This document shows positions 2,991 through 15,544 of a DNA stretch of 15,544 nucleotides, piece by piece; positions within the stretch are counted from its first letter, which is position 1; the number at the start of each line of letters is the position of its first letter. Both the position numbers and the translations under genes were made by a program. The stretch lies in IMG/VR virus record IMGVR_UViG_2660238008_000002, one strand, 5' to 3'. Below the pieces are notes generated by a model. The model was not told the DNA's origin. It worked only from the letters and a program-made list of their open reading frames with translations, and did no database searches. This DNA is from a virus (Duplodnaviria > Heunggongvirae > Uroviricota > Caudoviricetes).

Positions 2991-4010
2991 ATGAAAAGCA
3001 TATTAATTGAAAAACCGAATCAACTGGCGATTGTCGAACGTGAAATACCCACCCCGTCAGCGGGTGAAGTACGAGTAAAAGTGAAACTTGCCGGAATTTG
3101 TGGTTCAGATAGCCATATTTATCGTGGGCATAATCCTTTTGCGAAATATCCGCGCGTCATTGGTCATGAATTCTTTGGCGTCATTGATGCAGTGGGTGAA
3201 GGCGTGGAAAGCGCCAGAGTCGGTGAACGTGTTGCTGTCGATCCGGTGGTCAGCTGTGGGCATTGCTATCCGTGCTCTATAGGTAAACCGAACGTTTGTA
3301 CGACACTGGCTGTATTAGGTGTGCACGCTGACGGTGGTTTCAGTGAATATGCCGTGGTTCCGGCAAAAAATGCGTGGAAAATTCCTGAAGCAGTGGCCGA
3401 TCAATATGCGGTAATGATCGAACCTTTTACCATTGCGGCTAACGTAACCGGACATGGTCAACCGACTGAAAATGATACCGTTCTGGTTTATGGTGCCGGT
3501 CCAATCGGCCTGACGATCGTTCAGGTATTAAAAGGCGTCTATAACGTTAAAAATGTGATTGTTGCCGATCGCATTGATGAACGACTGGAAAAAGCGAAAG
3601 AGAGCGGGGCTGACTGGGCGATTAATAACAGCCAGACACCGCTTGGCGAGATTTTCACTGAAAAAGGCATCAAGCCGACATTAATTATCGATGCGGCTTG
3701 TCATCCTTCTATCCTGAAAGAGGCCGTAACGCTGGCTTCTCCAGCGGCACGTATTGTATTGATGGGGTTCTCCAGTGAACCGTCTGAAGTGATTCAGCAA
3801 GGAATTACCGGAAAAGAACTCTCTATTTTCTCTTCACGCTTAAATGCAAATAAATTCCCGATCGTTATCGACTGGTTAAGTAAAGGGTTAATTAAACCAG
3901 AAAAATTAATTACCCATACGTTTGATTTCCAGCATGTTGCTGATGCCATTAGTTTATTTGAACAGGATCAAAAACATTGCTGCAAAGTCTTACTCACTTT
4001 TTCTGAATAA
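2991..4010 (+). CDS. rspB: Zn-dependent alcohol dehydrogenase-family protein RspB
   Basis: ORF recognised as RspB, with the MDR motif GICGSDSHIYRGHNPF and a GAGPIGL Rossmann motif. Start chosen at ATG 2991 (MKSILIEK...) with AAGGAG at 2977-2982, giving 339 aa; tightly linked to rspA. Confidence 0.95.
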   Translation: MKSILIEKPNQLAIVEREIPTPSAGEVRVKVKLAGICGSDSHIYRGHNPFAKYPRVIGHEFFGVIDAVGEGVESARVGERVAVDPVVSCGHCYPCSIGKPNVCTTLAVLGVHADGGFSEYAVVPAKNAWKIPEAVADQYAVMIEPFTIAANVTGHGQPTENDTVLVYGAGPIGLTIVQVLKGVYNVKNVIVADRIDERLEKAKESGADWAINNSQTPLGEIFTEKGIKPTLIIDAACHPSILKEAVTLASPAARIVLMGFSSEPSEVIQQGITGKELSIFSSRLNANKFPIVIDWLSKGLIKPEKLITHTFDFQHVADAISLFEQDQKHCCKVLLTFSE

Positions 4011-4025
4011 TACCAATAACGGCGA

Positions 4026-4054
4026 GTAAGTAGTACGCATCTTACCTCTTTTTT
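4026..4054 (+). terminator. Weak candidate intrinsic terminator after rspB
   Basis: Short hairpin gtaag(4026-4030) / cttac(4041-4045) with a 10-nt loop, followed by ctctttttt. The stem is only 5 bp and AT-rich, so this is tentative. Confidence 0.3.
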
Positions 4055-4067
4055 AGAGATAACCATT

Positions 4068-4178
4068 ATGACAATAGAAAAACACGAAAGAAGCACTAAG
4101 GATTTGGTGAAAGCAGCAGTATCGGGATGGCTGGGCACTGCGCTTGAATTTATGGATTTCAAGAGTCATACGTGTTAA
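4068..4178 (+). pseudogene. ydfJ: N-terminal fragment of MFS (MHS-family) transporter gene ydfJ, truncated by prophage insertion
   Basis: Short ORF MTIEKHERSTKDLVKAAVSGWLGTALEFMDF... carries the N-terminal G-x3-E-x-x-DF signature of ProP/ShiA-type symporters and then runs into a stop within about 8 codons. In K-12, ydfJ is known to be split by Qin with its first ~28 codons next to rspB. Confidence 0.6.
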
Positions 4179-4200
4179 CTATTTGATAAATATTAAATTA
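4150..4200. other. Approximate chromosome/prophage junction (att core expected here)
   Basis: ydfJ-like coding potential ends about 4160 and the integrase stop codon is at 4198-4200, so the att core must lie in this AT-rich interval. The exact core cannot be defined without the other prophage end. Confidence 0.5.
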
Positions 4201-5493
4201 ATTTTTCATTGCTTCGTTATGGGGCATGGTTGGGGCAAACTCGCTTAACTGTGTATTTAACAAAGCTACCTGTGCATTATTGTTTTCAGACATCCATTTT
4301 CCGTATACCTGAAATACCATTTGCGCATCTGCATGGCCCATCTGGTTTGCTATAAATGCCGGGTTAGCACCAGCTGTCAGCGACCAGCAGGCATAAGTAT
4401 GTCTCGACTGATATGATTTTCGATGGCGGAGTCCGGCACGTTTTATCGCTGCGTCCCACATCTGCCTTATTGAGTCAACGGTAAAATGGTCACCATAATT
4501 TTTTACTCTCGCTGACACTTCAGGTTGAAAAACAAAGGTGCATTTTTGTTTTTCTGTTCTGCCATACTCTCTGAGGTGAACATCAATGATATGCTCTTTG
4601 CTCAGTCTCGTTAATGTCATCTGACTCCGGAGAGCGTCGATTGCTGGCTTAATAAGATGAATGACCCGATTGGTTCCCGCCTGTGTTTTTGGTACCGTGA
4701 AACGGTCTTTTGCTAAATTTCTCCTGATCATCATTGTTCCATTTTTCAGATCTATGTCCTCCCATCCAAGTGCACACAGCTCACCAGGGCGAACGCCAGT
4801 ATAAACAGAAACACACCATAAATTTTTGGCTTGCTGATTTCTGCACGCATCGATAAGACGGATGAATTCCTCCCGCGAAAGAGGATCCGGAATGGTTCTT
4901 GATTCCTTTAATGGCGAGATCCCCTTAAACGGGTTATCTGCCAAGTAACCGTTATCAACACCAAACTGGAACACGGCGTTAAGATTTGTCATGTAATTAT
5001 TTACAGTTACAGCCGATCTCCCTGGTTGTGTAACAATATAGTTACTTTTGGGGATCTGGTATCCAGTCAGTAGCTCTTTACGAACCTCCAGTAATTTTTC
5101 TTTATTAATCGATGAGGCAAGATTTTTTTCACCGATTATGCTCAGGATATTTTTGATGACGGCACGGTATGTGTTGAGTGATGTTTTTGCGACTTCAGTT
5201 TCTTTCAGTGCCAGAAATTTTTCAGCCAGTTCTTTTATGGTTAAATCTTGTCGGGCCTCACCAAATTTTTCCAGATTGCGTGAGGAGGGAAACTGTTTTG
5301 CATAGTCGAAAACACCAGTTTTTATTGCGTAACAAACAGAGGCGCGTAGTTCACCTGCAACGCGCCTGTTTTTTGCTGTGTCAGGAACCCCCAGATTTTC
5401 CCTGACTCTTACGCCTTTATAAACAAACCAGATACGTAATTTCCCTCCATGGTTTTCCACGCCTGTCGGATATTTCATTTCAACTTCTCTCAT
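4198..5493 (-). CDS. Phage tyrosine integrase (lambdoid Int family), apparently intact
   Basis: 431-aa ORF ending next to the att junction. C-terminal catalytic region has the expected R...H-x-x-R...Y pattern (RHTYACWSL ... HADAQMVFQVYGKW). The start may instead be the ATG at 5478 (MKYPTG...), which has a purine-rich GAGAGAAG upstream. Confidence 0.9.
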   Translation of the reverse strand: MREVEMKYPTGVENHGGKLRIWFVYKGVRVRENLGVPDTAKNRRVAGELRASVCYAIKTGVFDYAKQFPSSRNLEKFGEARQDLTIKELAEKFLALKETEVAKTSLNTYRAVIKNILSIIGEKNLASSINKEKLLEVRKELLTGYQIPKSNYIVTQPGRSAVTVNNYMTNLNAVFQFGVDNGYLADNPFKGISPLKESRTIPDPLSREEFIRLIDACRNQQAKNLWCVSVYTGVRPGELCALGWEDIDLKNGTMMIRRNLAKDRFTVPKTQAGTNRVIHLIKPAIDALRSQMTLTRLSKEHIIDVHLREYGRTEKQKCTFVFQPEVSARVKNYGDHFTVDSIRQMWDAAIKRAGLRHRKSYQSRHTYACWSLTAGANPAFIANQMGHADAQMVFQVYGKWMSENNNAQVALLNTQLSEFAPTMPHNEAMKN

Positions 5494-8952: not shown

Positions 8953-9005
8953 GGGCGGCAGAGCAGTCACGGAGTAAAACTGATACCGCCAAACGTCACC
9001 AGAAA
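8953..9005 (-). ncRNA. dicF: DicF small regulatory RNA (antisense regulator of ftsZ and other mRNAs)
   Basis: Reverse complement of 8953-9005 reads TTTCTGGTGACGTTTGGCGGTATCAGTTTTACTCCGTGACTGCTCTGCCGCCC, matching DicF as I recall it, followed by a T-run. Lies upstream of dicB as in Qin. Confidence 0.8.
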
Positions 9006-9383
9006 ATTGATAACAGAGGGCGTTGCAGCGGGGTTGTCACTTAAGCGTATGGTCAACCTGACAACCCGGTGTCCTCAACGGGGAAGGAATAACCCCGCCA
9101 TACTTACCGCCGCGCCATTTCGCGGGTTGCCACAACCGGAAGCGCACGGTCGACGAAAATTTAACGACAGGCTATCTATGAACCAGCTACCTCGCCGTGC
9201 GCTTTCGCGTTATGGTCTGACTTTTCAGGGCAATATCCTTTCAGTAAACTGTCAGTGCCGGATGCTCACCCGTGTCCGGCGCACGCACTCCACCTCACCC
9301 GTGGAGAACTCCTTAATTACTAACCTTAGCTTTGTTGATTAGCTACTAACGCGGGTAGCCGCGTGTCCACTATTGCTGGGTAA

Positions 9384-10313
9384 GATCAACCATCTTACGG
9401 TGAACTGATCCAGATTGATGGCTCACCTCATGACTGGTTTGAAAATCGAGGCCCCAGATGTACACTGATCGTTTTCATTGATGATGCCACCAGTGCGTTG
9501 ATGGCGTTGCGTTTTGTGCCTGCTGAAACAACCCGGGCTTACATGGAAACCCTCCGGGGTTACCTTAATGATCATGGCGTACCGCTCGCTCTCTACTCTG
9601 ATAGACACAGTATATTCAGGGTAAATAACCCAGAGCGGGAAGGTGAGCTGACCCAGTTCACTCGTGCGATAAAGACACTGGGCATCGAGCCAATCCATGC
9701 CAACAGCCCGCAGGCAAAAGGGCGGGTAGAGCGCGCCAATCAGACACTACAGGACAGGCTGGTCAAAGAAATGCGGCTTCAGAATATCAGTGATATTGAA
9801 ACAGCAAATGCATGGTTGCCGACTTTTATTGAAGCCTATAACAACCGGTTCGCTACGTCGCCTCGTACTACTGATAATGCTCATCTTGATGTGCACCATT
9901 CTGAAGAGGAACTGGGTTATATCTTCAGCCTACAGGCGAAGCGCGTTCTGTCTAAAAATCTCACTTTCCAGTACAAAAGCAGTGCGTTTCAGGTACGCAG
10001 TGAGAGCCGGGGATATCGACTTAGGCATTCGGTTGTTACTGTATGCGAGAACTTTGACGGTGAAATTAACGTTCTGTATGACGGGAAAGCGCTGGGCTGG
10101 GAAAAGTATGTTGATGGCCCGGAGCCTATACCACTGGATGATGAAAAGAGTGTCCATGAACGAGTGGATAATGCCCGTATTGATTTACGCTCAAAATACT
10201 ATGTTAAACCTAAAGCTGACCATCCCTGGCTTACGCGCCGAACGCAAAGTCATCAGCAAGTTAAGCCCCCGAAGTTACCTAAAAAGAAGCCTGATCCCGA
10301 TAAAAAAGATTGA
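9384..10313 (+). pseudogene. 5'-truncated DDE integrase/transposase (rve-type catalytic core; IS481/ISNCY-like, family uncertain)
   Basis: Reading frame is open from 9384 just after an in-frame TAA. Candidate catalytic residues: first D in IQIDGSPHDWFE, second D in LYSDRHSIF, E in KGRVERANQTLQDRL. No ATG or GTG precedes the first catalytic motif (first standard start is TTG 9498 / ATG 9501) and no N-terminal DNA-binding domain is present. May correspond to the K-12 intK region. Confidence 0.6.
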
Positions 10314-14249: not shown

Positions 14250-14627
14250 ATGCGTGATATTCAGATGGTTCTTGAGCGTTGGGGGGCATGGGCGGCTAAT
14301 AATCATGAAGATGTGACCTGGTCGTCCATTGCCGCCGGTTTTAAGGGATTAATTCCTTCAAAAGTAAGATCTCGTCCGCAATGCTGTGACGATGACGCGA
14401 TGATCATTTGTGAATGTATGGCTCGCCTGAAAAAAAACAACAGCGATTTACATGATTTATTGGTGGACTATTATGTCGGCGGCATGACTTTTATGGCGCT
14501 TGCACGTAAGCATGGGCGATCTGATTGTTGGGTTGGCAGGATGCTCCAGAAAGCTGAGGGCGTAGTGGAGGGCATGCTGATGGTGTTGGATCTCCGATTG
14601 GAGATGGATGCTGATTGTTCGAAATAA
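14250..14627 (+). CDS. Late-gene antiterminator Q (short QuuD / YbcQ-like type)
   Basis: 125-aa protein from ATG 14250 ([38 protein letters not shown]...), closely resembling DLP12 QuuD as I recall it. GGAG sits 7 nt upstream. The track ORF begins at an upstream TTG. Confidence 0.8.
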
Positions 14628-14639
14628 TTAAAGGAAAAG

Positions 14640-14668
14640 TTGCTGTCTGATTTTCATTAGTCTAACAT
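14640..14668 (+). promoter_or_regulatory. Candidate late promoter (pR'-like) downstream of Q
   Basis: TTGCTG (14640-14645), 17-bp spacer, TAACAT (14663-14668), in the expected position between Q and the downstream terminator. Sequence-based guess only. Confidence 0.3.
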
Positions 14669-14727
14669 TTTAAATGTTGGAATCGCAACGTAGTTATTAT
14701 CATATAACAGCTTGTTTCCTGATTTAG

Positions 14728-14754
14728 CCAGCCTCCCCAAAGGCTGGTTTTTTT
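14728..14754 (+). terminator. Intrinsic terminator (tR'-like) downstream of Q
   Basis: ccagcc-tccccaaa-ggctgg hairpin followed by seven T residues. Confidence 0.6.
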
Positions 14755-14782
14755 CTAATAAGTATCATTTCGGGTGGGGATT

Positions 14783-15307
14783 TTATTGTTTAACCCATAA
14801 TAGTTCATTGACATTGAATCCCAACTTTTGAGCGGTACGCACATAGTCTGCTTTTACATTATCTGGAATAGTTTGGGTCCTTGCCAGAATCCATAGGTAT
14901 TCTCTGTTCGGACCACTGACAAGAGCATACTTATACTCATCATCCAGTTTGATTACATTATAGCCACCATAGAAGGGGCCAAAAAACGAAACTTTCAACG
15001 CTGCAGTTTTAGTATCTCCAGTAAAGTATGCTTTACCTTCGCTCTCGCTCCATTTGTTTTTCGTTGGATCGTATCCACGGTTAAGTACGCGAATCCCTCC
15101 GTCGTTCCGTTTTTCATAAGTAGCGCTGACCTGTTCCAGACCACGTTCGAACCAGTTCTCGAGGCGAGCTATTTCATACCATTTTCCGAGGTAGCGGTTG
15201 GCGTCAAAATTTGTAATCGGCTGCACACCTTTAGGTGGTGTCGGGGCCTTACATGCTATAAGAGTGAAAGAGAGTGCAATGCCAGTCAACACAGGCCATA
15301 ACTTCAT
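14783..15307 (-). CDS. Blc-like bacterial lipocalin, outer-membrane lipoprotein
   Basis: 174-aa ORF with lipoprotein signal peptide and lipobox (LIAC). Lipocalin motifs NFDANRYLGKWYEIAR and FFGPFYGGYNVIKLD resemble chromosomal E. coli Blc; I estimate roughly 60-65% identity from memory. Confidence 0.85.
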   Translation of the reverse strand: MKLWPVLTGIALSFTLIACKAPTPPKGVQPITNFDANRYLGKWYEIARLENWFERGLEQVSATYEKRNDGGIRVLNRGYDPTKNKWSESEGKAYFTGDTKTAALKVSFFGPFYGGYNVIKLDDEYKYALVSGPNREYLWILARTQTIPDNVKADYVRTAQKLGFNVNELLWVKQ

Positions 15308-15385
15308 AATAAATCCTGTACTTTTGATAGTTGAGAGTAAGTATGAAAGATAGATGAGTACGACCGATCACTTAAAGAACTTTCC

Positions 15386-15544
15386 TGTAGATTCAATCTG
15401 TCAATGCAACACCCCTTTCAATTATCTCTTTCGGTGTTTTGAACTTCAGTGTCTTTCTCGGTCTGTTGTTTAGCTGAGCAGCAACCAGATCTAGTTCATG
15501 TTGAGTATATTGGGCAAGACATGTCTTTTTAGGAAAGTACTGCC
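15386..15544 (-). mobile_element. IS30 end (terminal inverted repeat plus 3' end of transposase gene), element continues beyond window
   Basis: TGTAGATTCAATCTGTCAATGCAACA at 15386-15411 matches the IS30 terminal repeat. Minus-strand translation of 15393-15544 ends ...QYTQHELDLVAAQLNNRPRKTLKFKTPKEIIERGVALTD*, which I recognise as the IS30 transposase C-terminus. Confidence 0.8.

Follow-up and report, generated by a model that had tools for sequence, protein, structure and literature searches.

How does a lipocalin lipoprotein gene come to stand between the antiterminator gene Q and the lysis genes of a lambdoid prophage, and what might it do there? The question is raised by positions 14783-15307 (minus strand) of a viral DNA stretch of 15,544 nucleotides (IMG/VR record IMGVR_UViG_2660238008_000002, Caudoviricetes), which at its full length is here called the window. 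The original prediction, made from the letters of the window alone, described the gene as Blc-like prophage cargo adjoining an IS30 element and left undecided whether it had come with the phage or with IS30. Here, we show by sequence comparison that the phage lipocalin is a member of a second enterobacterial paralog and not a copy of blc, and that its cargo partner is the gene of the tRNA desulfidase RudS. On balance, we favor, with moderate confidence for all of its parts taken together, the view that the gene is a lysogenic-conversion moron of lambda-like coliphages, encoding a lipid-binding lipocalin on the periplasmic side of the outer membrane and derived from a paralog linked to MerR and RudS.

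A second enterobacterial lipocalin paralog

The gene is intact and comprises 174 codons and a stop codon (14783-14785), with the signal peptide codons at 15254-15307, the codon of Cys19 at 15251-15253, and the mature region at 14786-15253. In profile searches, Pfam Lipocalin_2 (PF08212) covered the whole protein (E value, 7.5e-43), and membership of the bacterial lipocalin Blc subfamily is given by the NCBIfam hidden Markov model (HMM) NF007786, "outer membrane lipoprotein Blc" (312.6 bits for lipocalin residues 1-174, of 176 profile positions; curated cutoff, 267 bits). The N terminus, MKLWPVLTGIALSFTLIAC, contains the lipobox L16-I17-A18-C19, and the translation reads as a type II signal peptide of standard form, MKLWPVLTGIALSFT-LIAC19-KA. 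The lipidated Cys19 is followed by Lys20 and not by Asp, and position +2 is thus free of the Asp that would speak against sorting to the outer membrane. The lipoprotein features named in the original prediction, the gene's own signal peptide and lipobox, are accordingly all in place. The protein aligns without gaps to solved E. coli Blc (3MBT, 1QWD, and 2ACO; E values from 8e-67 for 3MBT to 2e-65) and conserves the lipocalin motifs GKWYEIAR and YLWILAR. Since it is 59% identical to solved Blc, we take the lipocalin fold as fixed, and the two proteins probably share this fold and the same general lipid-binding chemistry.

As to the designation Blc-like, membership of the Blc subfamily stood, but the gene proved to be a second paralog and not an ortholog of blc. 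E. coli Blc (b4149) resembles the phage protein in HMM subfamily, length, and lipobox, but it belongs to a different clade and has Ser, where the phage protein has Lys, after the lipidated Cys; it is described as stationary phase/RpoS controlled. In K-12, blc lies between ampC and gdx/sugE, and a native blc, 59% identical to the window protein, was present in 5,424 of the 5,426 complete E. coli genomes that formed our survey set. Because native blc is nearly universal and distinct from the phage gene, lysogens have two lipocalin paralogs; both paralogs were also present in Buttiauxella izardii. Lipocalins encoded in the frd-(ampC)-blc-gdx context share 56 to 61% identity with the phage copy and 59 to 79% with K-12 Blc. 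A neighbor-joining (NJ) tree built on the mature region, the comparison with chromosomal blc that had been proposed along with the original prediction, united the phage and MerR-linked copies and left out all frd-linked ones, with bootstrap support of 96/100; the same clade also takes in four unlinked copies, from Lelliottia, Kosakonia, Pantoea, and Symbiopectobacterium. This tree replaced a first one, in which a 3-residue fragment and truncated outgroups had caused low support.

RefSeq labels the phage gene either lipocalin family protein or Blc, and the label "blc" on prophage genes misleads genome annotation.

A two-gene cargo behind one Q allele

The 787 bases from the end of Q through the lipocalin gene to position 15386 recur with 100% identity in many E. 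coli chromosomes. Across the survey set, at least 80% of this query was covered in 1,012 genomes, a longer segment comprising the Q end, lipocalin, and RudS was found in 1,039, and the Q allele together with its downstream region in 1,077; as the first two counts nearly equal the third, the Q-lipocalin-RudS block is almost always complete. The lipocalin is also encoded, at 96 to 97% amino acid identity, by 12 isolated lambda-like Escherichia phages, including 1H12, the Lambda_ev series, and IdasGreatGrand, none of them with IS30. RudS is present in all 12, and the two genes are almost never found apart.

In these phages, as in prophages, the uninterrupted order is Q, lipocalin (reverse), a 319-amino-acid RudS ("YbgA family"), an AraC/YdeO-like regulator, holin, lysozyme, and Rz, and the block is found in differing lambdoid backbones. 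The phage "YbgA" gene encodes a fusion of TudS and DUF1722, that is, RudS, a tRNA 4-thiouridine (s4U) desulfidase. It is the first gene after the terminator tR', on the strand of the late transcript, and in this prophage it would lie beyond IS30 and the window end and hence outside the window; in intact copies, it occupies 29063-30022 (plus strand) of locus L003, the prophage of strain EA7, and 3459-4418 of locus L002. The lipocalin gene is antisense to late transcription, so that strand and gene order agree with the position predicted for it in the Q-to-lysis slot, and the prediction of prophage cargo, which absence of the gene from all related prophages would have undone, is supported by intact prophages and 12 phages with the same order. 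The cargo is, judging from this gene content, a two-gene unit with RudS and not a lone moron.

Two further properties are those of a moron. The GC content of the lipocalin gene is 0.44, compared with 0.54 for ydfU and 0.50 to 0.57 for the flanks, and the slot is differently filled elsewhere: after the homologous Q of DLP12, it holds nmpC instead. Like the lipocalin, nmpC is outer membrane protein cargo on the reverse strand and has been hit by an insertion sequence, IS5 (L107 4516-8173, E. coli MC1061), but it encodes a porin. The lc gene of PA-2 is likewise outer membrane cargo in the Q-S interval, whereas lambda bor and lom, also outer membrane protein cargo, are located elsewhere in the genome. 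A feature of this kind is nothing out of the ordinary in a lambdoid prophage.

Low ratios of nonsynonymous to synonymous substitution rates (dN/dS) and intact alleles show that both genes have been under purifying selection while phage borne. The two main phage alleles of the lipocalin gene differ by 18 to 19 synonymous and 5 to 8 nonsynonymous changes (dN/dS, 0.07 to 0.11; dS, ~0.17 to 0.18), dN/dS among the RudS phage alleles is 0.11 to 0.14, and dS among phage alleles across both genes ranges from 0.17 to 0.29. Every allele examined of either gene was intact.

A phage-borne lipocalin moron as such is already known. Mathieu et al. (2020; PMC6969025) listed blc, "a bacterial lipocalin," among the morons that more than 50% of 19 lambda-like phages of infant stool carry, and the lipocalin phages of our comparison are drawn from that collection. 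The moron of these phages (for example, 1H12 and Lambda_ev203) is the same gene (96% amino acid identity), likewise placed between Q and lysis and oriented the same way, but the window copy belongs to a defective prophage of the Qin type at rspB, without an immunity and replication region and with IS30 upstream. That report treats the gene as "blc" without separating it from the chromosomal gene or linking it to RudS. The status as a distinct paralog, the fixed pairing with RudS from one MerR-controlled locus, and the IS26-mediated mobilization of the full locus onto resistance plasmids, described below, each appear to be unreported in the literature searched. With the gene present in roughly one-fifth of complete E. 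coli genomes and in many lambda-like gut phages, these distinctions concern a widespread element.

Probable origin in a MerR-linked divergon

The best lipocalin homologs outside E. coli share 72 to 80% identity with the phage protein. We inspected their genomic surroundings through 8 separate look-ups, together with 80 species-representative loci that tblastn served to classify, and two clean groups emerged, one of them being the frd-linked lipocalins described above. In the other, lipocalins of 73 to 80% identity are divergent from the gene of an MlrA-like MerR regulator heading an operon that ends in RudS. A 73 to 79% identical lipocalin and RudS lay within ~2.5 kb of each other in 10 of the 80 species loci, and the MlrA-like MerR gene was present in nine of these ten; it was not detected in the Huaxiibacter locus (L026). 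MerR was also found beside the lipocalin in loci L005-L013 and in Serratia (L103), and further relatives of 74 to 80% identity are arranged likewise. The operon has a short form, (uraH)-RudS, in Enterobacter spp., Leclercia, Buttiauxella izardii, Raoultella, and Serratia rubidaea, and a long form, SnoaL-SDR-FAD oxidase-DUF1365-CFA-synthase-like-DUF2878-x-DUF3833-RudS, in Cedecea, Scandinavium, and Klebsiella variicola. The phage RudS is 69 to 75% identical to RudS of the same chromosomal loci, and its orientation to the lipocalin gene is also the same.

This chromosomal divergon thus holds the nearest relatives of both phage genes in the same divergent orientation, but the phage block is without MerR, uraH, and the lipid-modification genes, and its composition, which the two phage genes share, is far more AT rich: GC content at third codon positions (GC3) is 0.41 and 0.40 for the two phage genes, compared with 0.52 to 0.82 in the sampled chromosomal relatives. 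No phage or prophage copy examined had the MlrA-like MerR gene, and searches of the 192-bp phage intergenic region with tblastn and short blastn returned only noise for remnants of merR or uraH. The simplest reading would be that both ends of the divergon were captured in one event and the regulator was lost; as no merR or uraH trace remains, this route is one that we infer. Either the donor would be missing from the genomes sampled, or the capture would date back far enough for saturation of synonymous sites. Since the regulator is gone from the phage, expression of the lipocalin is likely unregulated or under other signals.

The intergenic sequence itself adds a complication. In chromosomal loci, a motif pair consisting of ATGAAG and then (G)TGCACTACACTT is located ~30 nt upstream of the lipocalin start. 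The pair GATGAAGC...GTGCACTACA precedes the lipocalin gene in chromosomal loci (L018-L025, ~9925-9970) but precedes RudS, on the opposite strand, in the phage (L003 28985-29027, plus strand), and the pair facing RudS is also kept in divergent phage alleles. In a shuffle test, z reached only ~3 to 4 and some shuffles equaled the observed score, and we treat the pair as suggestive only. A conserved lipocalin-side element, ATGAAG...GTGCACTACA, had been noted in the first intergenic alignment; it was dropped, as the motif faces RudS on the other strand, and does not count as evidence.

The enterobacterial MerR regulator is 44% identical to K-12 MlrA and falls under the MlrA equivalog cutoff, hence it is an MlrA paralog only. 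Only 63 E. coli genomes have its true ortholog, in most cases on a plasmid. The whole locus, lipocalin/MerR/uraH/RudS/AAA ATPase, occupies stretches flanked by IS26 on multiresistance plasmids, for example, at L106 6359-10532 (pZ1323HEC0108-3) and in L006, and is carried by 63 complete E. coli genomes. Lipocalins 80 to 90% identical to the phage copy are encoded by 91 PLSDB plasmids and are of a type distinct from the CMY-2-linked Citrobacter blc (60% identity; ~700 plasmids). This independent mobilization by IS26 onto resistance plasmids suggests that the locus is selected outside its native hosts.

IS30 is a late insertion next to a phage gene

The right edge of the window, from 15386 to its end at 15544 (minus strand), matches with 100% identity the end of an annotated E. 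coli ECONIH5 IS30 that is distal to the transposase. It comprises the right inverted repeat (IRR; 15386-15411), TGTAGATTCAATCTGTCAATGCAACA, and the 3' part of the transposase gene from ~15393. The intact divergent control region of lipocalin and RudS measures 192 bp between the two starts, and IS30 entered it midway, inside the quasi-palindrome TTCCTA-N6-TAGGAA: where the intact copy reads aactttcc|tactatattagg, the continuous intergenic sequence is split in the window. Alignment of the junction to the intact site of strain EA7 leaves 78 bp of native upstream region with the lipocalin gene (15308-15385, minus strand), the remainder being severed by IS30. The predicted adjacency to IS30 is thus real, with the IS30 end 78 bp upstream of the lipocalin start, and the original description of the site holds in every element. 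The transposase gene is oriented toward the lipocalin gene, and read-through from IS30 into the latter is conceivable from this arrangement; in this strain, the insertion may have cut off either gene, or both, from the signals that control them. Elsewhere, for IS30 copies in glnP (L104 ~1484-1521), the BLAST alignment runs with few mismatches ~20 nt into the window flank (15367-15385). IS30 prefers similar, partly palindromic targets, and the similarity of the glnP flank fits this preference.

Did the gene, then, arrive with the phage, with IS30, or by rearrangement of the host chromosome? The proximity of the IS30 end to the start codon could be taken to mean that IS30 imported the gene as cargo of composite or one-ended transposition, and the movement of the related lipocalin-MerR-RudS locus by IS26 on plasmids illustrates that mobilization of such loci by insertion sequences does occur. 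The window, however, has a single IS30 end on one side only, and the sequence, identical up to 15385/15386, runs on into RudS without any insertion sequence in over 1,000 genomes as well as in isolated phages. The lipocalin/IS30 junction was found in none of the 5,426 complete genomes. Because the block is free of IS30 in ~1,040 genomes and the junction occurs in none, the gene travels with the phage, which settles the question that the original prediction had left undecided: an IS30 origin of the gene is refuted, with a residual probability close to nil, and IS30 is a late, secondary, strain-specific insertion. Displacement of the native chromosomal blc by rearrangement would have accounted for the NCBIfam name Blc and for the RefSeq records that say blc. 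It is refuted just as firmly and deserves practically no credence, since the native gene remains at its own site between ampC and sugE/gdx, is only 59% identical, and is split from the phage lipocalin by phylogeny. The window gene, for its part, has Q as a neighbor, and intact copies have RudS and the lysis genes beside it as well, without frd-ampC-blc-sugE synteny, and falls outside the frd-linked clade; the rearranged native blc that would have overturned the original prediction is not what the window contains.

Proposed function and competing explanations

According to the reading that we favor, a moron encoding a second outer membrane lipocalin, the protein would be exported and receive its lipid at Cys19, after which the Lol pathway would take it to the outer membrane's inner face. 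At that site, the eight-stranded barrel would bind amphipathic lipids, such as lysophospholipids and free or modified fatty acids, and sequester or shuttle them, providing a second lipid-handling lipocalin beside host Blc. The block carries the two outer genes of the locus back to back without the regulator, fixed behind one Q allele, and in the defective Qin-type remnant of the window IS30 entered the shared control region later. Placement in the outer membrane, the class of ligand, prophage expression, and any advantage to the lysogen are what we infer. The ligands bound by E. coli Blc include fatty acids, with a preference for lysophospholipids (Campanacci 2004, 2006, as cited in PMC8177097 and PMC9731836), and the functional dimer and the binding of fatty acids or lysophospholipids are known solely for E. 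coli Blc (Campanacci 2006). In a proteomic study of Shiga toxin-producing E. coli (STEC), "Blc" A0A7U9G1P7 was 4- to 6-fold above EDL933 in two strains; this accession may or may not be the prophage paralog and carries no weight here.

Several points weigh against this reading. Even E. coli Blc has no settled ligand; binding of heme and porphyrin has also been reported (PMC8177097). A phenotype of the phage copy was not found in the literature searched. A scan of the intergenic region of the window and of the intact copy yielded no sigma-70 consensus promoter for the lipocalin gene, and the hairpin downstream of it is not followed by a T-run when read on the lipocalin strand; that the lysogen expresses the gene independently is therefore an assumption. 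The antisense position relative to the late transcript could silence the gene in lytic growth. As to the derivation, the direct donor is unsampled, the best identity outside E. coli being 80%, with synonymous sites saturated and no merR remnant, and the switch of the motif pair from the lipocalin side to the RudS side is not explained by a simple deletion of the regulator.

The same gene could instead serve the phage, through receptor masking and superinfection exclusion in the manner of Cor or T5 Llp or by shielding virions from debris. This would suit an outer membrane-type lipoprotein encoded by a temperate phage, and an adsorption phenotype was among those suggested along with the original prediction; among the morons of lambda phages, those for membrane proteins predominate, sie and bor being examples (Mathieu et al., 2020; PMC6969025). 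No PADLOC defense model, however, matched the lipocalin, and neither RudS nor the AraC-like gene had a match. The exclusion lipoproteins known so far have folds unrelated to lipocalin, and the 73 to 80% identity to nonphage chromosomal lipocalins, with the motifs kept, argues for a conserved ancestral biochemical role. We regard service to the phage as improbable. Hardly more probable is it that the lipocalin is a passenger, kept by linkage while selection retains RudS or the whole block. The enzymatic activity of RudS has been demonstrated, the phage copy included, RudS stands on the late-transcript strand directly after tR', and the two genes are so rarely separated that linkage might be sufficient. 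A neutral passenger would gather frameshifts and replacements, however, whereas the lipocalin gene is itself under the strong purifying selection documented above and is intact in every allele examined.

A more specific proposal concerns the pair. RudS from phage 1H12, the neighbor of this lipocalin, lowers tRNA s4U experimentally, and RudS genes are often found in MerR/LitR light-responsive operons (PMC11417400). The long-form locus contains lipid-modification genes of the UfaM/UfaD type (PMC7380195), of the kind that yields furan or cyclopropane fatty acids. A lipid-modification cluster of Stenotrophomonas maltophilia is induced together with a lipocalin, which rises 165-fold (PMC11832516); this lipocalin, Smlt2367 of the sigmaEc-ChrR cluster, is coupled genetically and transcriptionally to genes of the CFA-synthase and FAD-oxidoreductase types, as in the long-form locus, but the regulators are an extracytoplasmic function (ECF) sigma factor and its anti-sigma factor rather than MerR, the protein is annotated as periplasmic, and the likeness drawn here is one of gene coupling. 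By analogy with class II LitR operons in Pseudomonas, and from a note on Enterobacter cloacae, we would expect the divergon to be induced by light, near-UV, or oxidative stress, and its original role was probably in a photo-oxidative or near-UV stress response. It is tempting to speculate, although we think it rather unlikely as a whole, that the cargo is a remnant of such a response without its regulator, in which the lipocalin would deal with damaged or modified envelope lipids while RudS erases photosensitive s4U from tRNA. In that event, the antisense lipocalin gene would be expressed in the lysogen only, and E. coli lysogens would gain two functions otherwise missing from the species. The phage itself may use the pair, with RudS preserving tRNA function once UV has induced the prophage; a UV-induced phage might, for instance, use RudS against s4U-C13 crosslinking of tRNA. 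Paralog identity and RudS pairing point to near-UV, oxidative, and lipid-damage phenotypes of the pair, not to generic envelope stress.

Gene neighborhood

Upstream of the lipocalin gene in the direction of late transcription lies Q (14250-14627, plus strand; PF06530, E value of 8e-51), a QuuD-like allele labeled "antiterminator Q family protein" in identical prophages. RefSeq starts it at ATG 14250, the mechanical open reading frame at TTG 14235, and its first 375 nt are 85% identical to DLP12 quuD. The segment that follows, 14628-14725 (plus strand), accompanies Q in 1,077 genomes; we presume it to be a pR'-like late promoter/Q-utilization region from its position between Q and the terminator, and a candidate site, TTGCTG-17-TAACAT, was read by eye at ~14641-14669. 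A terminator scan placed a tR'-like intrinsic terminator with a 9-bp stem, a 6-nt loop, and a T-run at 14726-14755 (plus strand). Read on the lipocalin strand, the same hairpin lies 28 nt beyond the lipocalin stop codon and has no T-run. Rfam searches over the whole window returned DicF as the sole match and none near the lipocalin gene.

The surrounding prophage remnant

The window represents the rspA-rspB side of a Qin-type prophage, with genes for integrase, excisionase, and a RecE-like exonuclease, dicB/DicF, relBE, hokD, rem, ydfU, and Q. The antisense small RNA DicF is located at 8953-9004 (minus strand; RF00039, 76.7 bits) beside dicB, as a Qin-type element predicts. Compared with the near-identical prophage of strain EA7 (L003 17197-22951), 5.7 kb comprising ydfC/B/A, the repressor gene, cro, a ydaT-like gene, replication genes, and DUF977 are missing, with the junction at 9357-9389 beside a fragment of ISEsa1 (IS1202-like). 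Because this segment includes the repressor, cro, and replication genes, the prophage is defective and without its immunity region. The element is thus a decaying Qin-type remnant at rspB, ridden with insertion sequences, and nothing is unusual in this particular window beyond an aging prophage with a late IS30. Positions 1-161, which we take to be an IS1 terminus, abut the speG stop codon at 162; IS1 on the left and IS30 on the right suggest that the window is a short-read contig ending in repeats.

Two minor observations concern intact copies of the block. Between RudS and holin, a third cargo gene encodes an AraC/YdeO/GadX-like regulator with a GC content of 0.33 (PHROG 1450; L003 30429-31142, plus strand; L097 8193-8924; L098 8225-8956), which presumably may resemble the prophage-encoded regulators of acid resistance or of the locus of enterocyte effacement (LEE) in enterohemorrhagic E. 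coli (EHEC). PHROGs labels the families of the lipocalin, RudS, and this regulator all as "unknown function." Finally, a 2,113-bp contig assigned to "Candidatus Nanosynbacter" (L017; JARKOR010000135.1) carries the lipocalin at 97% and Q at 98% identity and is almost certainly E. coli prophage DNA misbinned into a metagenome-assembled genome (MAG).

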